Virus record (IMG/VR): IMGVR_UViG_2671180963_000004
Coordinates: 1-11,648 of that record
Origin: a virus
Lineage: Duplodnaviria > Heunggongvirae > Uroviricota > Caudoviricetes
Direction: 5' to 3' (one strand)
DNA: 11,648 nucleotides
The first letter of the stretch is position 1. Each line of letters opens with the position of its first letter. The position numbers were made by a program, and so were the translations under genes. The notes beneath the pieces are model-generated. The model was not told where the DNA came from and made no database searches. It worked only from the letters and a program-made list of their open reading frames with translations. This document shows positions 1-11,648 of this stretch, one piece after another.

Positions 1-219
1 TCACATCCACATAATTTGCTGCCCTGACGGCAACGGGTGCGGCCTCACGGCGTGGACTTCTCCCGGCTTCACGATGTATCGCTGTACCGACTCATAAGTG
101 ATGAACGTGGCGCTGCAATTCACGTTCTGACACTGGTGATAACGCTCTTTTGTCGTGTCAGTGATATAGCGACTTGTACGCGCATGTGCGGCATGCTGGC
201 ATAAAGGACAATGAAACAT
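1..219 (-). CDS. ogr: Ogr-type late-gene transcription activator (72 aa zinc-finger protein)
   Basis: Translation from ATG at 217-219 gives MFHCPLCQHAAHARTSRYITDTTKERYHQCQNVNC..., with a C-x2-C-x22-C-x4-C zinc-binding pattern, and matches P2 Ogr as I recall it. SD-like GAGGTG lies 7 nt upstream. The ORF-track extension to 282 is probably not translated. Stop codon is at 1-3. Confidence 0.88.
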   Translation of the reverse strand: MFHCPLCQHAAHARTSRYITDTTKERYHQCQNVNCSATFITYESVQRYIVKPGEVHAVRPHPLPSGQQIMWM

Positions 220-253
220 CGCGAGCACCTCTTCCGGTTTTGTTGATGGTGCC

Positions 254-282
254 ATTTTAGTTAATTTATCCTTATAAAACAA
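254..282 (-). promoter_or_regulatory. Candidate sigma70 promoter for ogr (-35 TTGTTT at 282-277, 17-nt spacer, -10 TAAAAT at 259-254, read on minus strand)
   Basis: Hexamers read by eye in the AT-rich 80-bp spacer between the D remnant stop (301) and the ogr start (219). No other support. Confidence 0.3.
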
Positions 283-300
283 ACAGATAAAATAAAAACA

Positions 301-1179
301 TCACTCATCATCTTCTGTTTCGTACTCCACATCAGAAAGCCTGACCTCAAGCTCCAGGGACGTCGTGAAGCCGCTATTATTCAGAAAATGTGTCACCTTA
401 GTGATTGTCCAGTCCTGCTCGTCTATGACGCGCTTAAAGCCTGATACTTTGACCGGCGTTTCCGTGTAAATATCTGCCCGACCAGTAGCCAGACTGATGG
501 AGAACTCCGCAACGCCCCGTTGCAGCTTATCCCACTTCGCCTGAGCGGCGCGCATGGCCTGCGCTTTCGTGGCATATACCGTGGTCAGGGCAAAAACGTT
601 GTCAGCCTCACCTGCCATGTATTCACCTTCGCGCGCTTCCGGTACTTTTGGCGCTTTCTTCTGCGTGACCGGTTTCGCTTTCGGGTGCTCCAGTGCGCGC
701 AGGTGTTTCTCTTTCTTTTTGCGTTTCAGTTTTACCTTCTGCTTTTGTGGCTTCGGGTCTTTGGTGTGTAACCACTTTGCCGTTACGCCGGTATAGGCTC
801 CACGGTCAGCAATCGCAAAATGATGGCGGTCGCCGTCGCTGCGGGTTATGGTGACCTGCGGGATTTTTTTACCACTGGCCGTCACCCCCTGCCCCGCTTT
901 GAGAAACAACAATTTTCCCATTTTTACCGACACCTCACCGCCGTTGCGTTCAGCAAGACGGGTCAGGAATTTCGCATCGGACTCCTGCGACTGGTCGATG
1001 TGCGGGATTTTAATTCCGGCCAGTGACGGAGCGACACTGGCCTCCAGCCTGTTACGGGAGGCTATCGCCTCAACAATCGCACCGAGTGTGGTGTCATGCC
1101 AGGAGCCTTCCCGGCGGGAATTGAGCGTCCCGCGAAAATCTGCACTCCGGGCGCGGATGGTAATCCGGCCAGATGACCA
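301..1179 (-). pseudogene. D: Tail protein D (P2 gpD-like), 5'-truncated or frame-disrupted remnant
   Basis: Called ORF 301-933 begins at a GTG. Manual in-frame translation continues upstream as ...ITIRARSADFRGTLNSRREGSWHDTTLGAIVEAIASRNRLEASVAPSLAGIKIPHIDQSQESDAKFLTRLAERNGGEVSVKMGKLLFLKAGQG..., up to an in-frame TGA at 1180-1182. No plausible start codon with RBS; an N-terminal portion is missing. Confidence 0.7.
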
Positions 1180-1357
1180 TCAGCTCACGCTGGCTGAAAT
1201 TCTGGCGGTAGGCTTTCACCTCGGAAATGGTCTTACAGCCCCATGCGCTGATATAAAGGGAAATCAGTGTCGCCTTGCGTTCGGCGAGAATGGTTTCAAA
1301 GTCCAGCTCCTCGACCACATCCGGTGCGGGTAGCTGGTTCAGGTCGATAATCGGCAT
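1094..1357 (-). pseudogene. J: Baseplate protein J (P2 gpJ-like) N-terminal stub; only about the first 35 codons look J-like, remainder runs into D-derived DNA out of frame
   Basis: N-terminus MPIIDLNQLPAPDVVEELDFETILAERKATLISLY matches the P2 gpJ N-terminus as I recall it. The ORF is 87 codons, far shorter than a full baseplate J protein of roughly 300 aa. Sits 4 nt downstream of the W stop, as expected for the V-W-J order. Confidence 0.55.
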
Positions 1358-1361
1358 GGTT

Positions 1362-1709
1362 TCAACTCACAGGGATGGTTAACGAAAGTGGCTGGCCGGT
1401 GTCGTTGTGCTGGCCGGTTAACGTGACCGTCATTCGCCCGTCAAAACTGCGCGCCGTAGTGACGGATGACAGGGTGACGCGGGGTTCCCATTTCAGCACC
1501 GCCATGTAACAGGCGACCTTAATCTGCAACTCAAGCGCCTGGGTCTGCGGCTGGTCAATCATTGATGCCAGCAACGAGCCGTAATCACGACGCATCACCC
1601 GTGAGCCGACCGGTGTGCGCAGGATATCGCCGATACTCTGGCTGATATGCTCAAGGTCAGTGACAGTCAGGCCATCACTGCGATTCATTCCGAGATAACG
1701 TGCTGTCAT
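1362..1709 (-). CDS. W: Baseplate protein W (P2 gpW-like, 115 aa)
   Basis: Full-length 115-aa ORF, MTARYLGMNRSDGLTVTDLEHISQSIGDILRTPVGSRVMRRDYGSLLASMIDQPQT.... Its start overlaps the V stop by 4 nt (ATGA). Position V-W-J is syntenic with P2. Confidence 0.85.
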   Translation of the reverse strand: MTARYLGMNRSDGLTVTDLEHISQSIGDILRTPVGSRVMRRDYGSLLASMIDQPQTQALELQIKVACYMAVLKWEPRVTLSSVTTARSFDGRMTVTLTGQHNDTGQPLSLTIPVS

Positions 1710-2341
1710 AGAGGACTCCCGGTTGTGCCGCCGCTGTCTCCTGGGTGTTTGTGGGTATGCAGTACCTTACCGTTTGATGAGAGTTCACCGCCGGTGTGTT
1801 CAATGTTGCCGCGCATCGTCCCGCCCTTCTGCACTTCCAGCGTGCCGGTAATCAGCCTGTTGGTGCAGACCACCTCCGGTGTGTCCAGGGTGACGCGGGT
1901 TGATGCTTTCACCATGACCACCGGCACCGTGGCAGTAACAGAATCAGAAGCCGTCACGCTGACCGTTTTAATTCCGCTTACCGTGAGTGCACTGGTTTCG
2001 GGTTCATATTCAATCACCGCTCCGTCAGGGAAACGGATATGCAGGGCATCCGCCGACGCAGACGGCGCGGGGTTATCGCCGGAATAAATCCCCGGCAGAA
2101 CGAACGCCGTGTCGAGTTCACCGCCCACGGCCAGAATCAGCACCTGCTCCCCCACGGAAGGTGCCCACCATGTGCGCGAACGACCGGCACGATGGGTCAG
2201 CCACTGAAGCCAGTCAGTGCACATGCCGCCGGTCTGCACACGGCAGCGACCGGCGTTAAGGTCGGTTTCGACGACAAGGCCGGTGCGGATCATGTTGCGC
2301 AGTGCGCGCGCGAGTTCCTGAATATTTGCGAGAGTGTTCAT
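1706..2341 (-). CDS. V: Baseplate central spike protein V (P2 gpV-like, 211 aa)
   Basis: 211-aa ORF of the length expected for gpV. Lies between S and W in P2 order. Confidence 0.85.
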   Translation of the reverse strand: MNTLANIQELARALRNMIRTGLVVETDLNAGRCRVQTGGMCTDWLQWLTHRAGRSRTWWAPSVGEQVLILAVGGELDTAFVLPGIYSGDNPAPSASADALHIRFPDGAVIEYEPETSALTVSGIKTVSVTASDSVTATVPVVMVKASTRVTLDTPEVVCTNRLITGTLEVQKGGTMRGNIEHTGGELSSNGKVLHTHKHPGDSGGTTGSPL

Positions 2342-2407
2342 AACGGGAAGGATGCCGCCGGGTCATACCGGCGGCAATGTGACGATGAGGTGTCGGGAAT
2401 GGCACAA

Positions 2408-2860
2408 CTAACGGTCGAGGTGCGCCAGAATAATCTCTTCAATCATCTGCACATCCTCACCGGTAAAGCCGAGCAGGGGACGCGCCGGATAATCAATTTT
2501 CTTACCGTCTTTCCGGTTTTCTTCCGACAGACCGAACTGATGCACACTGGCGATTTTCGGTGACTTTCCGCCGTAAAATTCCATTGATGCCTGTTCCGGG
2601 CTGGCGCGGATATGCAAAAAACGACTGGTGATAAGTTTCGCAAACATTTTTCGCTTAACACGACCAGTCTTTTTTCTGGCGCTCTGCTGCTGGCGTGGCA
2701 CGTAGGGTGTGCCGTCCGGGGCTTTCTGTGCCATCACCCGACGCTGCTGACTCTGCCGCAGGCGCTTCGCCAGTTCGGCACTCAGTCGCCGACGCCCTGA
2801 CGGTGACAGCGATTCAATCAGTCCGGTCAGCCGGTCTTCAAAACGCTTAAACTCATTCAT
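2408..2860 (-). CDS. S: Tail completion protein S (P2 gpS-like, 150 aa)
   Basis: 150-aa ORF; start overlaps the upstream R-frame stop by 8 nt, as in a coupled late operon. Sits in S position upstream of V. Confidence 0.82.
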   Translation of the reverse strand: MNEFKRFEDRLTGLIESLSPSGRRRLSAELAKRLRQSQQRRVMAQKAPDGTPYVPRQQQSARKKTGRVKRKMFAKLITSRFLHIRASPEQASMEFYGGKSPKIASVHQFGLSEENRKDGKKIDYPARPLLGFTGEDVQMIEEIILAHLDR

Positions 2861-3059
2861 CCCACTTACTCACCAGTTCGCCATTGATATAAAGCTCCAT
2901 CGGGCGGGTGACCGGCTCCGGCGGCGGAGGTTCCGGGATATTCTTCACATGCAGCGCGCCGTCCACCTCACTGACCAGCGTGCGCTCGGTCAGCATCAGG
3001 CTGATGCTGATACAGGACAGGATTCGGGAAATAAACGGCTGGCTCGGCCAGGAGGTCAT
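2853..3059 (-). pseudogene. R: Tail completion protein R (P2 gpR-like), 3' fragment only (68 codons)
   Basis: 68-codon ORF ending 8 nt inside the S start, i.e. R position. Manual translation upstream of the ATG at 3057-3059 hits an in-frame stop at 3072-3074. Full-length gpR is roughly twice this size, so this is probably a 5'-truncated remnant. Confidence 0.55.
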
Positions 3060-3105
3060 CCGCTTTAAAAACTACTCACTGGACACTGACAACGGCTGAA
3101 CATCG

Positions 3106-3126
3106 CCGCCTGCGGGCGGCTTTTTT
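3106..3126 (+). terminator. Intrinsic terminator-like hairpin (GCCGCC-TGCG-GGCGGC followed by TTTTTT), plus-strand orientation
   Basis: Perfect 6-bp GC stem with 4-nt loop, followed directly by a T6 run. Oriented for rightward transcription, opposite to the flanking late genes. Consistent with a relic terminator from the far side of a deletion, possibly downstream of gene Q. Confidence 0.4.
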
Positions 3127-3268
3127 ACACCCCGTCATCACGCCCTCACACGCTCACCACCGCACAAAACACCCCGCAGACACACCAACGCCCCGGCGCA
3201 CAATCTAAACGCCATCAAGACGCGCTCAGACGCTGAAAAAATAAAATCAGCACCACCGCCAGCGCGCA

Positions 3269-3287
3269 GTGCTTTCCCCGCCTCGCC
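3269..3287 (-). other. cos: P2/P4-type cohesive end site (cos), 19 nt
   Basis: GTGCTTTCCCCGCCTCGCC at 3269-3287 is the exact reverse complement of the P2/P4 cohesive-end sequence GGCGAGGCGGGGAAAGCAC as I recall it. Orientation agrees with the reversed gene order. Confidence 0.8.
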
Positions 3288-3472
3288 CGCCCGCTTCATG
3301 GGGCATTTTTAATGCAGTTGCATGAACACTCCAAGAGCACACCATCGCTAGTGATAACTAACAATAAAAGCGACTTCTGACGCATGCAAATCCATGCACA
3401 TGATGGCATTTTTCATGATCTATGCGGTATGCTATCCGCTTCAATTTTTAACACTTGTTAAGGGAGCTAGAC

Positions 3473-4615
3473 ATGGACATTATTGATTTAAAATCTCAAC
3501 TAGAAAATGAAGATAATGCCAAGAAAAGAGCAGAGTTGCTTGCTCAGCTAGAGGTGATAAAGCAAAACGCTGAAGAGCAAATTCGTGCTGAGCAAAAGGA
3601 TGTGGATTTTGAGACCAAAGAATTTACCGTTGAGTTATTAGTTAATAAGTATCATAGCGGATTAGAGGATGATACTAACGAACTCTTTGTTCCTGATTAT
3701 CAAAGGGATTTTGTTTGGAGTGAAAAAAGACAATCAAGATTGATAGAGTCTTTGATTTTGGGTTTTCCTATACCATATATATTTACAGCAGATGTTCTCT
3801 CCGAAGATCCCGATTTAGATGGGCGAATTGAGATTGTTGATGGCTCACAGCGAGTTAGGACTATACACGCTTTTATCCAAAATGAATTAGTTTTACAAGA
3901 TCTGAAATCTTTAGACGCCCTTAATGGTTTCAAATTCCAAGATTTACCATTATCACGTCAACGTCGTTTCATGAGAATTCCTGTCCGCGTTATAGAATTG
4001 AGTTCTAAATGCAATGAAGAAACCCGTAGAGATCTTTTTGAACGTATTAACTCTGGCAGCGATATATTGAAAGATATGGAAGTCCGTAAAGGATCAGAAC
4101 TTGGTTCAACAAATTTATATACACAGGTTATTAAGCCATGCTCAACAATACCTAAATTTAAAGAATTAGCACCTTTATCTCAGACTAAAGAAAAACGAGA
4201 TGAACGGTTAGAATTTACATTAAGATTTTTTGCCTACTTAGATAAGTACAAGAACTTTGATCATTCCGTACGGGATTTTCTAAATGACTATATGTTAGAA
4301 AATCGAGATATAGACGAAACTAAACAAAACTCAATGAAACAAGAGTTTGCTAATGTTCTATCTTTTGTTGATAACTATTTCCCAGCAGGATTCAAGAAAA
4401 CTATTACTGCAAAATCTACACCTCGAGTTAGATTCGAATCTCTCGCTGTTGGCGCAGCACTTGCATTACGTGAAATCCCTGACCTTGTTCCCAAGAACTT
4501 GGATTGGCTAAGCTCAGAAGAATTCAAACGATTGACCACTTCAGACGGAGCTAATAGTCGCGTGAAGGTAATTGAACGAATTGAATATGTTCGGGATAAA
4601 TTATTAGAGGATTAA
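3473..4615 (+). CDS. DUF262 (ParB/GmrSD-N-terminal-like) domain protein, about 380 aa, no fused DUF1524/HNH nuclease domain
   Basis: Motifs DYQRDFVW (nt 3695-3718) and IVDGSQR (DGSQR at 3839-3853) are the hallmark QR..VW and DGQQR-type motifs of DUF262. Preferred start is ATG 3473, preceded by SD AGGGAG at 3461-3466; the ORF track uses TTG 3455. No (D/E)HxxP-type nuclease motif seen in the C-terminal half. AT-rich composition. Confidence 0.8.
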   Translation: MDIIDLKSQLENEDNAKKRAELLAQLEVIKQNAEEQIRAEQKDVDFETKEFTVELLVNKYHSGLEDDTNELFVPDYQRDFVWSEKRQSRLIESLILGFPIPYIFTADVLSEDPDLDGRIEIVDGSQRVRTIHAFIQNELVLQDLKSLDALNGFKFQDLPLSRQRRFMRIPVRVIELSSKCNEETRRDLFERINSGSDILKDMEVRKGSELGSTNLYTQVIKPCSTIPKFKELAPLSQTKEKRDERLEFTLRFFAYLDKYKNFDHSVRDFLNDYMLENRDIDETKQNSMKQEFANVLSFVDNYFPAGFKKTITAKSTPRVRFESLAVGAALALREIPDLVPKNLDWLSSEEFKRLTTSDGANSRVKVIERIEYVRDKLLED

Positions 4616-4616
4616 C

Positions 4617-5297
4617 ATGGATCGTTTTCGTGAGGATTTTGACGAAAGGTCAGGAGAGATCTTGGCCTATTTAGATCTTTTGAAATTTATTGAGTATGCC
4701 GGTGCAGAACTGATATCATCTGATGATAAAGAACATAAGTTCTCCATTACTGCTCAATCACGAAAAACTCTAAAGGGGGCAGTATATATTCTATTATATA
4801 ACCTCATTGAATCAACAATGAGAGAAGCTATCTGCCTTATTCATGAGACTATTTATGATAGAAACGTAGAATTTGACAAACTCAGGAAAAATATCAGGTC
4901 AGAAATATTAAAAAGATTAAAAAATGAATCTGTAAATATTGAAAGTTTAGTTAACCGTCTTACTAAAGGTATATCTTGCGGTATATCTTATGGCACTTTC
5001 AACAAAAAGAAAATATTCTCAGGAAATATTGATAGAGAGGAAATCAAAGAAAAATCGAAAATATATGGTTTTTCAACATATTCTGATTACACTCACACTA
5101 AACATGGTGAAAAATTAGCCACTGTCAAACAACATCGTAATGATTTATCTCATGGCAATGTATCATTTGCTGAGATTGGAAAAAATGTTTCATATCAGGA
5201 CTTAGAGAATATTTCATTAGAAGTAATCGCCTATCTTGATGCAATCGCGAATAATATAGAGCACTATATAAATAATAATGAATATTTAGAACAATAG
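4617..5297 (+). CDS. HEPN-like protein with Rx4H motif (putative RNase/nuclease effector), 226 aa
   Basis: ATG at 4617 is 1 nt after the upstream TAA (4613-4615), with SD-like GAGG at 4607-4610, indicating translational coupling. C-terminal region has KQHRNDLSHG, i.e. R174-x4-H179 (cgt 5136-5138, cat 5151-5153), the HEPN signature. Largely helical-looking, K/E-rich sequence. Pairing with a DUF262 protein resembles the MAE_28990/MAE_18760-type HEPN family naming as I recall it. Confidence 0.7.
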   Translation: MDRFREDFDERSGEILAYLDLLKFIEYAGAELISSDDKEHKFSITAQSRKTLKGAVYILLYNLIESTMREAICLIHETIYDRNVEFDKLRKNIRSEILKRLKNESVNIESLVNRLTKGISCGISYGTFNKKKIFSGNIDREEIKEKSKIYGFSTYSDYTHTKHGEKLATVKQHRNDLSHGNVSFAEIGKNVSYQDLENISLEVIAYLDAIANNIEHYINNNEYLEQ

Positions 5298-5303
5298 TAA
5301 TAA

Positions 5304-5320
5304 GGCCTGCAAAGCAGGCC
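5304..5320. terminator. Bidirectional terminator-like hairpin (GGCCTGC-AAA-GCAGGCC) between convergent genes
   Basis: 7-bp perfect stem with 3-nt loop in the 29-bp gap between the HEPN stop (5297) and the methyltransferase stop (5327). Flanked by T-rich sequence on plus (ATTTTAT) and A-rich on the other side. Confidence 0.5.
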
Positions 5321-5326
5321 ATTTTA

Positions 5327-6352
5327 TCATTCTAAATGGTTCTTGATTGATTGCCCAATTGCTTTTCCTAGTTCCACAGGAACAGCATTACCTATCATTT
5401 TCCCAATACTTCTTATAACAAACTTGTCTTTGTCTTCTACAAAGATATAATCCATCGGAAAAGTTTGCAATAAAGCAGCCTCTCTAAGAGAAATCGCTCT
5501 ATGCTGTTCTGGATGTCCAAAACGTCCATTTCCGAAACCATAACAAAGAGTTGTAATTGTTGGACTTGGCTTATCCCAAGACATGCGCCCATATACACTA
5601 GCATATCCTTTACCGCTAGATTTCATATGACAAGCAGCAATCAGCTCCTTCGGCCAGTCCTTCCATGTACCACCAGGAACAGAGTGTATAATTCTTTTTT
5701 TATTAATCGGATTTAATTTACTGGCTCTATGTAATATATCATTTGGATCTGTTTGGCCATCTTCTAACGGAGGAAGATTTCCTATTGCATCTCTAACTGT
5801 TTTCAAAATAACATCGTCACGTTTTACTAACTCAATCGCCCCCAATTTTGAAGCCAACAATACATGACGGGAACGGTTTTGTGGGATTCCATATTCGACA
5901 CAATCAACCTTCGACGCCCAAACATAATAGCCCAACTTTAACAATGAATTATAAAAATCATTATAAACTTTATGTTTAGTTACATCAGGAACGTTCTCCA
6001 TTGTTACGATTTCTGGAGATACTTCGCGAATTAAACGTTCGAACTCATAAAGAAGAGGCCATTTTTTATCATCAGCCTTATCTTTTCCTTGAGTATATTT
6101 TGAAAAAGGTTGGCAAGGTGCGCATCCTGCCAATACTTTTACAGACGCATCACCATAAAGCCTCAGCAGTTCCTCTTTTGTTACTTTAGCGATATCTTGC
6201 TCAATAAACTTAGATTTATTGTTTCTTTCATAGGGAAACCGACATTCCCCCTCAAGGTCTATGCCTGCAACGACATCAAGCCCCGCAAGCTGTAAACCAT
6301 GAGTTAATCCGCCAGCACCACAAAAAAGGTCTATCACCTTTACAGTCATCAT
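5327..6352 (-). CDS. DNA (cytosine-5)-methyltransferase, Dcm/M.HhaI-like, 341 aa
   Basis: Canonical C5-MTase motifs in order: motif I DLFCGAGG (AdoMet binding), motif IV GCAPCQPFS (catalytic PCQ, about 6110-6118), motif VI ENV (about 5990-5998), motif VIII QNRSRHVLLAS, and a C-terminal GNAVPV. SD-like GGAG upstream of the ATG at 6352. Confidence 0.9.
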   Translation of the reverse strand: MMTVKVIDLFCGAGGLTHGLQLAGLDVVAGIDLEGECRFPYERNNKSKFIEQDIAKVTKEELLRLYGDASVKVLAGCAPCQPFSKYTQGKDKADDKKWPLLYEFERLIREVSPEIVTMENVPDVTKHKVYNDFYNSLLKLGYYVWASKVDCVEYGIPQNRSRHVLLASKLGAIELVKRDDVILKTVRDAIGNLPPLEDGQTDPNDILHRASKLNPINKKRIIHSVPGGTWKDWPKELIAACHMKSSGKGYASVYGRMSWDKPSPTITTLCYGFGNGRFGHPEQHRAISLREAALLQTFPMDYIFVEDKDKFVIRSIGKMIGNAVPVELGKAIGQSIKNHLE

Positions 6353-6435
6353 TCACTCCAAATCTATACGATGCTCAGTATACATCCCTTTCTACAAAAT
6401 CTCGAGGCCTAACTTATAAACTCCTATTGATTGAG

Positions 6436-8535
6436 TTAACGCTTCACTGAGTTTGACTCTAATACTGTTGAGAATCCCGGCCACTCATCAGCGACCTGAT
6501 AAGTAAAATGTTTCCCGTCATAATTTACGGTCGCCCCACGCGCCAGCGCCTCAAGCTCCCATCGCTGCGGCCTGATACCGTTCTGAGCGAGGTCAACGCG
6601 GATACGGGTAATTTGCATTCGTTCCGACCGGGTCAGTCTGGCCGATGGTGCCATTTCATACTGTTTTAACGGGCTTCCGTTTCTCTGCTGACGATTTGGT
6701 GTTCTCAGCCCGTGTTTTAATGCGCCCCTGAGCGCCCTCACGACCTCCGGGTCATTCCATTCGATAACACCGTCATCAACCAGATTAAGCACTGCTGCGG
6801 CGTGCTCAGAAGGCGTGGGAGCCGGTAACGAAGTATCACCGCTGGTGAGCTTTCCACAGTTATTGACAGGACTCCGAGGCGCGGCGATGCCGCTTTTTAA
6901 AGTCAAAGGCTCAACGACCGGCACTTTCGGAACAATGCGCCAGTCCGTCGTTCTGGTGATATGAATATGACGCGCGCCGAGATGCGGCGCGTAAATGCCG
7001 ACCACTCTCTCGACTTCTTCCTCGTACTCGTTAACTTCATCCGACGGACTACGGGCGACCCTGACAGTCTGACAATCGCGCGGGACATTTGCCCCACCCT
7101 GCGCGCTGATATACAGCGCAAAATCACCACTGTCTGCGGCGGCGCGTGCAGCCTCGACGCGCTCGTCAAACTCATCAGCAATGCTGACGCCGCGAGGCAA
7201 TTTGCGTAGTTCACGGTAAGCCCCCATTGTCGGCAGGCCAACCGTTTTAAATTGCGGAATGCGCCACGTTGACGCCCATGCGGTAACAGCCGCGGCAGTA
7301 TCTTTCAGCGGTCTGCCGGTATCGTTATCGAGCTGCCCATCCAGTGCATAGCCGTCGATATTTTTTGAGATGTATTTCGCGATATACCCCGCAGCACCGC
7401 CCCGATTAAGATGTTTTGCCTGAAAACGGTTTCGCGCGGCTCCTCTTTCGTCGCCATCCTCTTTGAGCGCATAGCGACGCATGATTTCGATAATCTGGTT
7501 ACGCTGGCGTGGATTACAAAAAAACATCATATGCCAGTGCGGCGTTCCGTCGTGGTGTGGCTCGACGACTCGCAAACCGTAGACCTGTAAATCATTATCC
7601 TTGAATGCCGTGCGCATCAGGCTCCAGATACGGCAGAGATAACGCTGCGCATCCTTTGGATTAAATGCCTCATCGTTCCAGCCGTGATTTAGCTGGACGG
7701 TTTTACTTTCGCCTTTTCCAACCTGACGTGTCGGGTGATACTTTGACGGCGCGGTCAGCGTGATAAACATCCCCACATCACCCTCTGCGGCGGCGTAACG
7801 CTCAATACCGGCAATGGTGTTCATCAGCTCCATCCGGCGAATTTCAGGATTAGAAATACTGCCCATCACCTTACTGATAAGGTCGATGCGCTCGCCTGTT
7901 TCCCTGTTTTCGAGATCACACGATTTAAGAAATTCCAGATTTGCCTGGCGGCGTGCACGCACATCACGAATGGCATGTTTACTGGCATAAGGAGAACGGT
8001 CTTTATTGACCTCCCCGACAGCAATCAGTAACGCCTCATGCCAGCGCATACGCTGGCCTTTAAGCTGATGAGTCCACCACTCATCGTTAAACAGACGGGC
8101 AATGGCAGAATATGCCTGCCTCGTGGTCATCTGTCCTTTACGGTATTTTTTCCAGTAGAGAGGGGAAATATTGAAAGCACGTGCAGCGCCAGCAACATGA
8201 CCATAGAGGTGAGCCTGCGCCTCATCCGTAAACAGCGATTCTTTTTCGCCATGCGCATCCACCCATGCATCGCAGAGTTCCTCATACATCATGAAAAGCT
8301 GCGATGAGATACGGGCGGCAAACTTTTTCAGCTCCTTGTCATTCATTCCAGGCAGGCGCGCATAATGGTCACGCTCTGCCAGAAACAGCAACGACGCGTC
8401 GGTGTTCATTTCATGGCGCTGATTCACGCGCTCAATGCGCGGCCATAAGCGACGCTGAAAAGTGGATGTGAGGAAATAAAACCCGTGCAGCAGGTATTGG
8501 CGCATCACACTCTTCGCAAACCAGCGAAGAAACAC
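6436..8535 (-). CDS. A: Replication initiation protein A (P2 gpA-like rolling-circle HUH endonuclease)
   Basis: HUH motif in PHHDGTPHWHMMFF and tyrosine pair in GYIAKYISKN, typical of P2 A-family initiators. Called start 8533-8535 is a GTG with an in-frame stop 9 nt upstream (8545-8547); an in-frame ATG at 8503-8505 (MRQYLLHGFYF...) is an alternative start. Coding region overlaps the upstream zinc-finger ORF. Confidence 0.85.
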   Translation of the reverse strand: MFLRWFAKSVMRQYLLHGFYFLTSTFQRRLWPRIERVNQRHEMNTDASLLFLAERDHYARLPGMNDKELKKFAARISSQLFMMYEELCDAWVDAHGEKESLFTDEAQAHLYGHVAGAARAFNISPLYWKKYRKGQMTTRQAYSAIARLFNDEWWTHQLKGQRMRWHEALLIAVGEVNKDRSPYASKHAIRDVRARRQANLEFLKSCDLENRETGERIDLISKVMGSISNPEIRRMELMNTIAGIERYAAAEGDVGMFITLTAPSKYHPTRQVGKGESKTVQLNHGWNDEAFNPKDAQRYLCRIWSLMRTAFKDNDLQVYGLRVVEPHHDGTPHWHMMFFCNPRQRNQIIEIMRRYALKEDGDERGAARNRFQAKHLNRGGAAGYIAKYISKNIDGYALDGQLDNDTGRPLKDTAAAVTAWASTWRIPQFKTVGLPTMGAYRELRKLPRGVSIADEFDERVEAARAAADSGDFALYISAQGGANVPRDCQTVRVARSPSDEVNEYEEEVERVVGIYAPHLGARHIHITRTTDWRIVPKVPVVEPLTLKSGIAAPRSPVNNCGKLTSGDTSLPAPTPSEHAAAVLNLVDDGVIEWNDPEVVRALRGALKHGLRTPNRQQRNGSPLKQYEMAPSARLTRSERMQITRIRVDLAQNGIRPQRWELEALARGATVNYDGKHFTYQVADEWPGFSTVLESNSVKR

Positions 8536-8620
8536 CGCAATGTTTTACCCTTGCCGCGTTAATCTGGCGCTCCAGTAATTCAGCCTGTTGTTCCTGAATA
8601 AAATCTACGTTGTCCGGCAT
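8432..8620 (-). CDS. Small TraR/DksA-like zinc-finger protein (possibly degenerate), 62 aa
   Basis: Contains CEECDAPIPAAR, resembling the C-x2-C-G-x-P-I-P-x-x-RR core of TraR-family phage zinc fingers. The expected second CxxC pair is absent in all three frames; the tail is VLFPHIHFSASLMAAH. Overlaps the A start region by about 70-100 nt. Confidence 0.45.
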   Translation of the reverse strand: MPDNVDFIQEQQAELLERQINAARVKHCGVSSLVCEECDAPIPAARVLFPHIHFSASLMAAH

Positions 8621-8622
8621 TA

Positions 8623-8925
8623 TCAGCTCCTTTTATCGTTAAGTTTCCTGGATACATCAGCGCAATAACTGGCGAGTTCTGTCGTTAATTTTGTCAGTTC
8701 ATCCACTGAGGAAATTTGCTTGTGGAACACAGCGCGTTTAACAAGTAAATTGACCACATCAGACAGGAGGTTTAATTCATTCTGATAAATCGCGATAACA
8801 GATTCAGTTATGTCGCGTTTTTCTTTATCAAGACAAAGTTGAATAAGAGACAAATCACCATTTTCCATAACGGCGATTTTTAAGGCGTTATTCAGTAATA
8901 CAACTGAATGAGAACAGGACATCAA
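8623..8925 (-). CDS. Hypothetical small early protein (100 aa), in the B-to-A interval
   Basis: ORF in the same orientation as the early operon; start overlaps the upstream ORF stop by 4 nt (8922-8925). No recognisable motif. Confidence 0.5.
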
Positions 8926-9146
8926 AGCACCTCCCCGCGAGACAATCCGATATTGTGAAATTTTTCCGACTCCTGACTGAGCAGCTCGACTATCTCCACG
9001 CGGGATAACTCCGCCTTTGTGATATGGCGAATCATGGCGTCAAGATGAGAAGAAAAGCGCGTCGCAGCGTCGGCCTGTGCTTCGGTTCTGGCCTGTTGCA
9101 GCAGTAATGCGTATTTACCGCACTGATTTTCAGAAACTGTATGCAT
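8922..9146 (-). CDS. Hypothetical small early protein (74 aa), downstream of B
   Basis: ORF in early-operon orientation, coupled by overlap to the next ORF. No recognisable motif. Confidence 0.5.
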
Positions 9147-9209
9147 GACTTTCTCCAGGCAAAAAGAAGCCCCGCACGATTAAGTGCGTTAAAAACTCTG
9201 GTTAATTAT

Positions 9210-9710
9210 TTAATGCAAATATTGCTCTGGTTTTACCGACGTCAGAATTGTCGGTGCATACTCAAACAGACTGAATAGTTCACGTAATGCACGGAATAAA
9301 GCATCACGCCAGTAACATGACTCTTCATTAATTCGCCAGTATGGCTGATTGAATTCTTTTTCAGTCAATCCGGCATGCATAAATAAAGTACGACGCTGAC
9401 TGACTGTTAAAAAACTAATATATGCATACTCACTTGCGCCAACCTGACGGCGTTTTGAGAATGCCCCACGCAATTCATCAATTGCACAAACCAGCCGTTC
9501 ACGTTCGACGTCGTTCATTTCTTCAAAACGCATCGTTGCGTGACGTTGTTTTAACTGCGCATGAAAGCAAACTGTTAGCCGTTCGCGCTCCATCATCTGA
9601 TTATAATAATCACATGTATCCTGCCAGCGAGGGACGGCAAGATGCTTACCAATTATCCGGCGCATAGCTGCTGGCTGTTTTTCGACGAGATTGAGCGTCA
9701 TCACTGTCAT
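9210..9710 (-). CDS. B: Replication protein B (P2 gpB-like, 166 aa, helicase-loader-type early protein)
   Basis: 166-aa ORF of the length and position (downstream of cox and a small ORF, upstream of A) expected for P2 B. Confidence 0.75.
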   Translation of the reverse strand: MTVMTLNLVEKQPAAMRRIIGKHLAVPRWQDTCDYYNQMMERERLTVCFHAQLKQRHATMRFEEMNDVERERLVCAIDELRGAFSKRRQVGASEYAYISFLTVSQRRTLFMHAGLTEKEFNQPYWRINEESCYWRDALFRALRELFSLFEYAPTILTSVKPEQYLH

Positions 9711-9877
9711 TTCCAGACCCTCCGGCTTTTCAGAAAGGTCAGAGCCTTTTTTAACGGACTCTGTTTTTTGGTGCGGATAATGATTCCCTTACGCCCCTTA
9801 CCGTGGGTGATGGTGAAGTCAATCGCCCTGGGGCTTTCGTTACGCAGTAACTGAGCAATACAACGCGGTTCACTCAT
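9707..9877 (-). CDS. Small early ORF between cox and B (orf78-like position), about 56 aa
   Basis: ORF track starts at ATG 9902-9904, which would overlap the cox 3' end by 25 nt. In-frame ATG at 9875-9877 lies 2 nt after the cox stop and is preferred. Stop overlaps the B start (ATGA-type). Confidence 0.45.
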   Translation of the reverse strand: MSEPRCIAQLLRNESPRAIDFTITHGKGRKGIIIRTKKQSPLKKALTFLKSRRVWK

Positions 9878-9879
9878 AA

Positions 9880-10152
9880 TCACAACCCCATCCACAAAAG
9901 CCATGCATCACGCTGTTCAACTGGTCGGTTATAAAACGCCTCTCGTACAGCGCGATTAAACTCTGGAATGAAAACCCACTTCTCACCGACACGAGCGTTC
10001 GGCTTACTTGGATCACGAAGCTCAATAACTGGCAATTTATTCTCTTTTACCATCTTGACTACAGCCGTTTCTGGCTTACCAAGTAACTCTGCAAACTTAA
10101 CCGTATGTACCGCATCAATCGGGTACTGAATCACATAGTCATTGACTTCCAT
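9880..10152 (-). CDS. cox: Cox (P2-type excisionase/early-promoter regulator), 90 aa
   Basis: 90-aa ORF, first gene of the minus-strand early operon and divergent from C. Region KLPVIELRDPSKPNARVGEKWVFIPEFN...RDAWLLWMGL resembles P2 Cox as I recall it. Confidence 0.78.
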   Translation of the reverse strand: MEVNDYVIQYPIDAVHTVKFAELLGKPETAVVKMVKENKLPVIELRDPSKPNARVGEKWVFIPEFNRAVREAFYNRPVEQRDAWLLWMGL

Positions 10153-10197
10153 TGATTAGCCCTTTTTGCTTTCGTGTTACCCTTATTAGATCCAGCC

Positions 10198-10227
10198 CCT
10201 TCTAGGTCGCCCCTGTCCTTTCTAGGG
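10198..10227. repeat. Direct repeats CCTTCTAGG / CCTTTCTAGG (10198-10206 and 10218-10227): second candidate operator or Cox-box pair
   Basis: Near-identical 9-10-bp direct repeats spaced about 21 bp apart (two helical turns) in the cox-C intergenic region. Confidence 0.3.
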
Positions 10228-10248
10228 ACTGGCTAACACACTCAAAAG

Positions 10249-10292
10249 GTCACCAATACACAACCTTTTGACGGGAATATAAGTCACCAATA
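10249..10292. repeat. Direct repeats GTCACCAATA (10249-10258 and 10283-10292) flanking the candidate Pe -10: candidate repressor (C) or Cox operator half-sites
   Basis: Exact 10-bp direct repeat, 34 bp apart, one copy inside the Pe spacer and one just downstream of the predicted start site. Confidence 0.35.
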
Positions 10293-10304
10293 GGTTACTG
10301 TCAA
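10276..10304 (-). promoter_or_regulatory. Candidate early promoter Pe (minus strand): -35 TTGACA (10304-10299), 17-nt spacer, -10 TATATT (10281-10276)
   Basis: Near-consensus hexamers with 17-bp spacing, read on the minus strand. Lies on the C-proximal side of the cox-C intergenic region, consistent with the face-to-face Pe/Pc arrangement described for P2. Confidence 0.5.
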
Positions 10305-10598
10305 ATGCAGACATTCGAAAAACTGAAAGCGATTAGGAAAGCAGAAGGCTTAACACAGGCGAAATTCAGCGAAATTAGCGGGATAGCTCTAGGAACAGTC
10401 AAAAATTACGAAAGTGGGCATAAAGACCCTGGTCTCAGCATCGTTATGCGAGTCACAAATACGCCTTTATTTAAAAAATATACGCTCTGGTTAATGACTG
10501 GTGATACGTCACCACAAGCTGGTCAGATCGCGCCGGCTCTCGCACACATTGGGCAAAAACCAACAGAATCAGACCGCTCCGAAAAACAGACTGGTTAA
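10305..10598 (+). CDS. C: Immunity repressor C (P2 C-like, 97 aa, HTH)
   Basis: N-terminal helix-turn-helix region LTQAKFSEISGIALGTVKNYESG. C-terminal KYTLWLMTGDTSPQAGQIAPALAHIGQ closely resembles P2 C as I recall it. Divergent from cox and upstream of int. Confidence 0.82.
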   Translation: MQTFEKLKAIRKAEGLTQAKFSEISGIALGTVKNYESGHKDPGLSIVMRVTNTPLFKKYTLWLMTGDTSPQAGQIAPALAHIGQKPTESDRSEKQTG

Positions 10599-10667
10599 CA
10601 CTCTATAAACATTACATTTTCACCATTTGTTACCAAGATGGTGAATACAGCGTCAGAGGGCTTTCTT

Positions 10668-11648
10668 ATGTCAATTAAGAAGCTCGATGATGGACGCTAT
10701 GAAGTGGACATTAGACCTCGCGGTCGCGACGGAAAACGCATCCGCAGGAAATTTGAAAGAAAAGCTGAGGCTGTAGCATTTGAGCGATACACAATCGCCT
10801 ACGCCAGCCAGAAAGAATGGGCAGGTCAGCGAGCAGATCGCAGAACTTTGAGTGAGTTGCTGGACATCTGGTGGAAATATCACGGGCAAAACCACGAGCA
10901 TGGAACAAAAGAGTTTAATCATCTGCTCAAAACCATCAGCGGCATAGGTGATATACCAGTGAGCCGGATGAGCAAAAGAGCTTTGATGGATTATCGTTCC
11001 ATGCGACTACGAAATGGTATCAGTGCCGCAACGATAAACCGTGACATGTACCGATTATCCGGCATGTTCACAAAATTAATTCAATTGGATGAATTTTCCG
11101 GGCAACACCCAATTCACGGACTGCCGCCACTGGCGGAGGCCAACCCTGAAATGACGTTCCTGGAAAAAGCAGAAATCGAAAAACTGTTAAATGTTTTGGA
11201 TGGTGATGACTTACTTGTCGCACTTTTATGTCTGAGCACTGGAGGAAGATGGACGGAAGTTGCCACGCTAAAACCAGCACAGATTACAAATTGCAGGGTT
11301 ACCTTCCTGAAAACCAAAAACGGTAAAAAGCGAACCGTGCCGATTTCTGAGGAACTGGAGAAAAAAGTTAAAGAGGAGGCCAGCGCTAAATTATTCAAAG
11401 TTGATTATGAGAAGTTTTGCGGGATTTTACGCAGAGTGAAGCCAGATATACCACCCAATCAGGCAACCCACATCCTGCGGCATACATTCGCAAGCCATTT
11501 CATGATGAATGGGGGCAATATAATCGCACTGCAACAGATTCTGGGACATGCGAGCATTCAGCAGACGATGGCCTATGCGCACCTTGCGCCTGACTACCTG
11601 CAAAATGCCGTCGCGCTGAATCCTCTAAAAGGCGGAGTGACGTTATAA
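10668..11648 (+). CDS. int: Tyrosine integrase (P2 Int-like), about 326 aa
   Basis: MSIKKLDDGRYEVDIRP... matches the P2 Int N-terminus as I recall it. C-terminal catalytic region HILRHTFASHFMMNGGNIIALQQILGHASIQQTMAYAHL carries the H-x-x-R box and Tyr of tyrosine recombinases. Preferred start is ATG 10668 with SD AGAGGG at 10655-10660; the ORF track starts at 10638. Stop is at 11646-11648, the window edge. Confidence 0.9.
   Translation: MSIKKLDDGRYEVDIRPRGRDGKRIRRKFERKAEAVAFERYTIAYASQKEWAGQRADRRTLSELLDIWWKYHGQNHEHGTKEFNHLLKTISGIGDIPVSRMSKRALMDYRSMRLRNGISAATINRDMYRLSGMFTKLIQLDEFSGQHPIHGLPPLAEANPEMTFLEKAEIEKLLNVLDGDDLLVALLCLSTGGRWTEVATLKPAQITNCRVTFLKTKNGKKRTVPISEELEKKVKEEASAKLFKVDYEKFCGILRRVKPDIPPNQATHILRHTFASHFMMNGGNIIALQQILGHASIQQTMAYAHLAPDYLQNAVALNPLKGGVTL

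Follow-up and report, generated by a model that had tools for sequence, protein, structure and literature searches.

A microhomology-flanked deletion scar, with a recurrent breakpoint in gene J, in the P2-like prophage remnant at the cpxP-fieF site of Escherichia coli

How does the beginning of the baseplate gene J of a P2-like prophage come to lie within 100 nt of the end of the tail gene D? The question is raised by a stretch of viral DNA of 11,648 nucleotides (IMG/VR record IMGVR_UViG_2671180963_000004, here called the window), for which the original prediction, made from the sequence alone, was a deletion scar in a P2-type prophage that joined the first 35 or so codons of J to an internal part of D. 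A scar with these two ends is indeed present. With a probability of about 0.88, we take it to be a product of illegitimate deletion, mediated by microhomology, within a P2-like prophage, now defective, that lies between cpxP and fieF, and its breakpoint in J to be one that has been used recurrently.

The shortened prophage and its intact parent

A draft contig of E. coli (GCA_001283625.2, CYEL01000013.1) matches window positions 1-11357 at 100% identity and has the order int...ogr-fieF-pfkA, and in a sister contig (L005) cpxA-cpxR-cpxP stands directly upstream of int. The chromosomal neighbours of the prophage, which has been reduced from about 31 kb to 11.6 kb, are cpxP and fieF, a location given for P2-type prophages in a published table (PMC3032704). 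Its P2-like (Peduovirus) identity is evident from the possession of its own tyrosine integrase at this known P2-type attachment site, from its gene order (ogr-D'-FI'-J'-W-V-S-R'-Q'-cos...A-B) and from 96-97% nucleotide identity to P2. The genes cox, C and int then follow (gene calls, and Pfam Phage_Cox, HTH_3 and Phage_integrase), int and C having diverged so far as to be only 70-79% identical to those of P2. Alignment by blastn to P2 (NC_001895) as reference phage gave the following blocks.

Window 3-1161 (P2 24252-23094): ogr and the 3' part of D
Window 1159-1255 (P2 18228-18132; 95.9% identity): internal part of FI
Window 1254-2341 (P2 11395-10308): J nt 1-104, W and V
Window 2406-3012 (P2 9369-8763): S and the 3' part of R
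Window 3000-3316: P2 286-1 and cos
Window 6456-8489 and 8484-9878: A and early genes

Three genes near the scar are intact; W and V, which lie upstream of it, together occupy 1362..2341.

1..219, minus strand: ogr, late-gene activator, 72 codons (Pfam Ogr_Delta, 2e-21; a 72-aa gene call in the source contig)
1362-1709, minus strand: W, baseplate gene (Pfam GPW_gp25; blastn)
1706-2341, minus strand: V, baseplate gene (Pfam Phage_base_V and Phage_spike; blastn)

Most of Q, everything from P through lysC, the 5' part of R and most of J have been lost, as have all of I, H, G, FII, E, T and U, most of FI and the 5' part of D. The window is thus a defective remnant that lacks the complete morphogenetic gene set of an inducible phage, and we infer that it cannot make capsids or tails.

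What the prophage looked like before these losses can be seen in other strains. Many complete E. coli genomes share its int-C-cox module at 100% identity, and two of them (CFSAN064036 and NH-21) were examined. Strain NH-21 carries an intact and near-identical parent, showing 99.9-100% identity over every segment of the window. In CFSAN064036 a prophage carrying the same cargo, also intact, lies at cpxP/fieF; its early, cargo and R'-S-V-W-J' segments match the window at 99.7-100%, whereas identity in D-ogr is only 96.8%, compared with 99.9% for NH-21. V-W-J' of the window is 100% identical to both. The comparison of window 1-1161 with CFSAN064036 (L020, 31722-32880) indicates mosaicism between strains at the right end of these prophages. 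The spacer between S and V (window 2342-2405) lacks orf30, unlike that of P2 and of the remnants at the yegQ locus; since the intact parent has an equally short spacer, the absence of orf30 reflects lineage variation and not an additional deletion.

Against NH-21, four blocks totalling 19,137 bp are missing from the window, and each deletion shows microhomology of 2-3 bp.

599 bp, orf82' to A': microhomology TGC; junction at 8484..8489, no strand assigned, orf82 being fused to A minus its first 81 or so codons
8,489 bp, Q' to R': microhomology TA within a homeologous patch of 8/13; junction (the second large deletion) at 3000..3012, no strand assigned, from blastn and alignment to the parent
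5,181 bp, J' to FI' (J nt 104 to FI nt 481), including I, H, G and a DNA invertase: microhomology TA
4,868 bp, FI' to D' (FI nt 574 to D nt 304): microhomology TT

The 8,489-bp deletion, which joins the 3' end of Q, the portal gene, to a point in the middle of R, took with it the greater part of Q, all of P, O, N, M, L, X, Y and K, the lys genes and the beginning (5' part) of R, so that the capsid, terminase and lysis genes are all gone, while cos (about 3269-3316) is still present. The 599-bp deletion in A is polymorphic within the clone that carries the prophage: one contig (L003) has A intact, and another (L005) is without most of it. In the NH-21 parent (L021, 24000-27234) a serine-recombinase (DNA invertase) gene and inverted tail-fibre and assembly segments lie between G and FI, and this module falls wholly inside the J-FI deletion of the window.

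The four junctions, when read against NH-21, thus show the short microhomologies (TA, TT, TA and TGC) of illegitimate deletion. Long repeats near them were seen only at the level of chance, and neither an IS, an att site, cos, an origin nick nor a long repeat was seen at the ends of the scar. From 2-3 bp of microhomology and the lack of any of these elements, RecA-independent illegitimate recombination seems the appropriate explanation.

Structure and origin of the scar

Base-by-base alignment against P2, repeated against NH-21, resolved the spot flagged in the original prediction into two junctions, the sequence passing from J into a 94-nt piece of FI and thence into D.

1254..1357, minus strand: first 104 nt of baseplate gene J (codons 1-35), ending ...GATTTCCCTTTA (blastn)
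1254..1255, no strand assigned: J/FI junction, 2-bp microhomology TA (alignments)
1162..1255, minus strand: internal fragment of the sheath gene FI, 94 nt (FI nt 481-574, residues 161-191), in frame with J
1162..1163, no strand assigned: FI/D junction, 2-bp microhomology TT on the minus strand (three-way alignment with the FI and D regions of L021)
301..1161, minus strand: 3' fragment of tail gene D, 861 nt (codons 102-387 and stop), no usable start (blastn)
1094..1357, minus strand: chimeric ORF of 87 codons (J 1-35, FI 162-191 and 22 codons of D read in the +1 frame), stop TGA at 1096-1094

Read on the minus strand from 1357, the window gives MPIIDLNQLPAPDVVEELDFETILAERKATLISLY, that is, residues 1-35 of P2 gpJ with one substitution, encoded by the first 104 nt of J; the J-like N-terminus that had been predicted to start there is therefore real. 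At the first junction J continues to ...GATTTCCCTTTA at 1254 and FI takes over from TATATCAGC..., the join falling inside a tyrosine codon of both genes (Y35 of J, TAC; Y161 of FI, TAT). The FI piece is 99% identical to the NH-21 parent (window 1255-1159, L021 27774-27870; blastn). At the second junction FI runs to ...GGCCGGATT and D starts from TTACCATCC..., with TT common to FI and to the D allele of NH-21; the join looks blunt when the D allele of P2 serves as the reference. The D fragment itself is 99.9% identical to NH-21 D, and its Pfam Phage_GPD match covers profile positions 151-304 only. Translation in the D frame gives a stop followed by WSSGRI and then TIRARSADFRG..., D resuming at T102 (window 1161).

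Several elements of the original prediction can be judged from this map. D sequence in a different frame from J was correctly recognized, in that D runs from codon 102 to its stop at 1161-301, but the interval 1180-1252, which had been assigned to D, is wholly derived from FI. The in-frame TGA reported at 1180-1182 does close the D frame upstream, although it sits in FI DNA. The genes between J and D, all of which had been thought absent, have been lost from the tail module save for about 90 nt of FI. The proposed alignment to P2, intended to place the breakpoint and find any microhomology, was carried out and, with the alignment to NH-21, found TA and TT; it also excluded two readings that would have counted against the prediction, namely that 1094-1357 is a contiguous gene unrelated to J, and that the D region is a complete gene with an alternative start (it begins at codon 102, with the TGA upstream).

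The single J/D fusion of the original prediction, with everything below about 1253 belonging to D, did not survive alignment, which places breakpoints at 1255/1254 and 1163/1162. J' and D' are certainly both present and within 100 nt of each other, and a genuine fusion of J codon 35 to D is known in strain H1827/12; but the alignment of window 1162-1255 is with FI (96-99%) rather than with D, and the corresponding peptide is FI residues 162-191, so that a direct junction in the window is rejected and has become wholly improbable as an account of it.

Two routes to the observed arrangement may be considered. Two co-linear deletions, of 5,181 bp and 4,868 bp, would strip out the tail module, with 94 nt of FI remaining between J' and D'; or a single event of replication template switching would copy a short stretch of FI and then land in D. 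That two unrelated deletions occurred in sequence (J to FI, and FI to D), with the FI remnant spared by chance, would be in keeping with the two further independent deletions in this prophage, with the stepwise decay of its sisters and with the ordinary 2-bp microhomology at each junction. It would, however, need the second event to fall within about 90 nt out of several kilobases, for which our own estimate from segment sizes is an a priori chance of roughly 1-3%. Moreover, neither half of the compound junction was present in complete E. coli genomes (0/5,426), and an intermediate with one deletion (J/FI only or FI/D only) was found neither in these 5,426 genomes nor in the 10 contigs that carry the chimeric ORF. 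We therefore regard sequential deletion as unlikely, though it is the most serious of the competing accounts. The low chance of so short a gap favours a templated insertion; examined for template switching of the MMBIR/FoSTeS type, the scar showed a co-linear FI insert of 94 nt with a 2-bp microhomology on either side. We infer that one event with two template switches is more likely than two separate deletions.

Might the outcome have been selected, either as a functional J-FI chimera or as a mobilisable mini-P2 satellite of 12 kb in which cos, ori, int, cox and ogr persist? The join between J and FI does preserve the reading frame, as would be expected in one case in three anyway, and the chimeric ORF ends 22 codons into out-of-frame D. 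It matched no Pfam family and was found on 10 contigs by exact look-up. The lack of a domain match and the out-of-frame tail suggest that it is probably a pseudogene, although its position in the V operon means that expression of Ogr could lead to its production. As for a satellite, L003 retains int, C, cox, B, an intact A and the cos-adjacent junction sequence, and the size of about 12 kb is roughly one third that of P2 (cos, ori and ogr were seen in the window only). But the chromosomal flanks are identical across the carriers compared: over fieF-pfkA there were 0/2139 mismatches among the five comparable carrier contigs (L002-L006), against 8-15 in other strains (8 in NH-21 and 15 in CFSAN064036), which speaks for vertical inheritance, and gene A is decaying in several sisters. 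Mobilisation was rejected on the grounds of these flanks, and selection in either form is very improbable.

An ordinary illegitimate deletion scar, inherited vertically, thus remains the preferred account. All the sister contigs carry both junctions of the J/FI/D scar as well as the Q'/R' junction, and gene A is in differing states of decay among them. Identical flanks together with varied states of A indicate that the carriers are a single clone in which the prophage is still decaying; the tail and head deletions are the earlier ones, and decay of the replication genes is ongoing.

At the position of tin and old in P2, the window has a cargo (3455-6352) encoding a DUF262/GmrSD_N protein, a HEPN protein of the MAE_28990 type and a C5 cytosine methyltransferase. 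In PADLOC, the first of these matched NsnA (2e-54) and PD-T4-2_A (5e-35). Despite the loss of phage genes, the cargo shows 0-1 mismatch among the five sisters (L002-L006) and in the intact parents.

The recurrent breakpoint in gene J

When the 87-aa ORF was searched against 5.8 billion protein clusters, many short ORFs with the N-terminus of J were returned. Their tails were mapped on P2, and removal of frameshifts, partial ORFs at contig ends and adaptor artefacts left 39 junction events, a census based on called ORFs of up to 151 aa in one database. In 9/39 J is truncated at codon 35, in 2/39 at codon 34 and in 4/39 at codon 45, the remaining events being scattered at one or two per codon. 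A uniform model gives a probability of about 0 for nine or more events at one codon, and the value is 5e-6 if only codons 25-60 are considered, so that within the census the recurrence is statistically solid. To the nine events at codon 35 are added the window and H1827/12, the only finished genome among the examples, most of which are draft or Logan assemblies. Altogether, the breakpoints of at least 11 further P2 remnants, all independent, fall within 1-5 nt of the J breakpoint of the window, with J ends at P2 11393-11399 (J codons 34-36), which corresponds to window 1254-1255. The partners recorded are I, H, FI, FII (twice), T, D, ogr and an internal part of J (P0106, known at the protein level only), with 2-6 bp of microhomology. 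The tract containing the breakpoint is GATTTCCCTTTACCCGG (J codons 32-37).

DNA was fetched for nine of the census events, which with H1827/12 gives ten other junctions read at the DNA level. For 8/10 the partner could be placed on P2 or on the NH-21 parent.

L008 (H1827/12): J end at P2 11396; partner D, 23485; TAC
L014: J end at P2 11397; partner I, 12310; ACC
L016: J end at P2 11397; partner FI, 18074; TACC
L012: J end at P2 11395; partner FII, 19066; TTA
L013: J end at P2 11397; partner FII, 19142; TACC
L019: J end at P2 11396; partner T, 21068; AC
L017: J end at P2 11395; partner ogr, 24048; CCTTTA
L018: J end at P2 11397; partner H (NH-21 type); TACC
L015: J end at P2 11395; partner not placed on P2
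L022: J end at P2 11393; partner not placed on P2

Within these loci the breakpoints lie at about 6000 (L008), about 4104 (L012-L015 and L022) and about 5104 (L016-L019). All ten deletions are rightward, every microhomology is a substring of CCTTTACCC, and deletion lengths at the site range from 0.6 to 12.7 kb.

Could the shared breakpoint have been handed down from a common ancestor, or spread among remnants by gene conversion? Most of the examples do lie in one widely inherited remnant, that at the yegQ/yegR locus. However, the right-hand partner differs from example to example, and fuller remnants cannot descend from emptier ones; serial re-deletion from the same left end would in any case need a determinant at that end. 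The window and L018, moreover, belong to a different prophage lineage, the NH-21 type (over its short J stretch, L018 is 99.4% identical to NH-21), while the other junction examples are of the yegQ-locus lineage, to which the window is 97.7% identical (2.3% divergent) in V-W-J. By their sequences, then, the breakpoints fall in at least two prophage lineages, and common descent does not explain how two diverged lineages have the same J end. We consider shared ancestry or conversion improbable.

More tentatively, and at somewhat less than even odds, we propose that GATTTCCCTTTACCCGG is a sequence-determined, one-sided deletion hot spot in P2-like prophages. Replication or a nicking activity would repeatedly leave a 3' end at P2 11395-11397, and this end would re-prime downstream by means of microhomology of 2-6 nt and would at times pick up a templated insert, as proposed for the window. 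Frameshift variants also cluster at codons 33-36, in the tract T3C3T3AC3G2, and this pile-up fits a tract at which polymerases slip or pause. On the K-12 map, the P2 plus strand is the nascent leading strand at both loci.

None of the specific causes that we tested for the preference gained support. A pseudo-attP for Int was rejected, as the local score was 9 against 11 at other P2 sites and two integrase types are involved. A mimic of the origin nick site of the P2 A protein was rejected in the lack of similarity to the J site, a pseudo-cos for terminase with a score of 9 at J, under the background mean of 10.3, and a Chi/RecBCD asymmetry with zero Chi sites in P2 and in the window. Self-targeting by a Type I-E CRISPR system was rejected by reasoning, its products being expected to retain the protospacer and PAM, and adjacent deletion mediated by an IS because the phage-placed junctions have no IS sequence and show microhomology throughout. 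A hairpin formed by CTGATTTCC and GGAAGATCAG, with the breakpoint in its loop, had a predicted energy of -9.3 kcal/mol (z = -1.0) and is unsupported; the NH-21 allele weakens its stem, yet the breakpoint is still used. ViennaRNA with its gquad option gave no G-quadruplex on the bottom strand. A G4-like motif, C3N4C3N22C3N3C3, occurs once in P2, by a definition set after the site had been seen, and the breakpoints lie inside it and not at its edge, so that the case for it is weak.

A second cluster of J truncations is found at about P2 11426 (codon 45), comprising four events (P0019, P0022, P0039 and P0046). It lies 31 nt downstream of the first, also at T-ACCC, and is not significant on its own (P = 0.05-0.27). 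The T^ACCC common to the codon-35 and codon-45 clusters involves two sites only, and P0039 and P0109 disagree on its register, the P0109 junction having been deduced from its peptide and an R sequence and not from DNA.

Two other rearrangements were seen among the remnants. In E. coli KTE156 (L012, 4102-5467) the junction of J codon 35 with FII occurs twice in tandem, in a repeat unit of about 560 bp (J 11367-11403 and FII from 19066 onwards), which suggests a complex rearrangement at the J hot spot. In the holin gene Y, two remnants break within 5 nt of each other at P2 6940-6944 (L019 at about 649 and L014 at about 1875), the breakpoint being the retained right end in one and the retained left end in the other; this may be another recurrent breakpoint.

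Attempts to extend the census to complete genomes were uninformative: counts for the J half-site (1723, 1718 and 1742 places) contained more noise than signal, and truncations of the codon-35 type were too rare there for measurement. Our literature searches found no report of the J breakpoint.

Prophage decay and comparison with known systems

Taken by itself, the scar appears to be an ordinary one from the loss of tail genes. It records how one E. coli clone cut a P2-like prophage of 31 kb to 11.6 kb, keeping the regulatory genes, some baseplate genes and an intact cargo of the defence type, a pattern in agreement with what has been published on defective P2 elements, in which defence genes are conserved (PMC13586616). 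An annotation trap is corrected at the same time, for the 87-aa ORF and the 206-aa 'D family' ORF are fragments. If the proposed hot spot is real, the J site would be a preferred start of tail-module loss when P2-like prophages are inactivated; its confirmation would mean that prophage decay is non-random at the nucleotide level, and would provide a natural and easily assayed site for RecA-independent, microhomology-primed deletion in E. coli.

Among the systems close to the window are the intact Peduovirus prophages at cpxP-fieF (in NH-21 and CFSAN064036, and Wphi1 of E. coli W), which share its site, integrase, immunity and cargo at 99.9-100% identity, and from which it differs in being short of 19,137 bp in four blocks.

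The original prediction had likened the D part to the remnant next to ogrK in E. coli K-12 (ogrK-yegZ, PR-X), named ogr-D' in PMC3032704. The likeness is one of kind, each being a P2-type right end cut down by deletion to ogr and the 3' part of D, but it does not extend to identity of the element. The K-12 remnant is at another locus (cyaR/yegQ-yegR) and is without J, W, V, S and the early genes. In MG1655 it comprises P2 24382-23742 only (ogrK and the last 213 nt of D), with a D breakpoint that lies 648 nt further 3' than that of the window, where D starts at P2 23094. Over 511 nt the two are 96.5% identical, with 18 mismatches.

Strain H1827/12, whose remnant is a derivative of the P2*B type of E. 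coli B at the yegQ/yegR site, comes closer with respect to J, for it keeps codons 1-35 and its J break is within 1 nt of that of the window, with 3 bp of microhomology (TAC). It differs in having a direct junction of J to D, at P2 23485, with no FI insert, and in belonging to another lineage (2.3% divergent, with orf30) at another locus. Its junction is carried by 1/5,426 genomes.

Beyond P2, the J site may be set beside deletions that start at a nick or a replication block. Illegitimate recombination at the origin nick of M13 and of pC194 was reportedly described by Michel and Ehrlich in 1986, and G4-induced deletions in dog-1/FANCJ mutants of C. elegans are said to have been described by Kruisselbrink in 2008 and Koole in 2014. 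Differences from these systems are that the J site matched no nickase site, origin, cos, att or Chi, that its fit to a G4 is poor and that its deletions, at 0.6-12.7 kb, are larger. It resembles them in that one end is fixed to within a few nucleotides while the other varies over kilobases, in being one-sided and in its microhomology of 2-6 nt. MMBIR and FoSTeS involve template switching with templated inserts, and the stretch of FI in the window may be just such a short templated insert.
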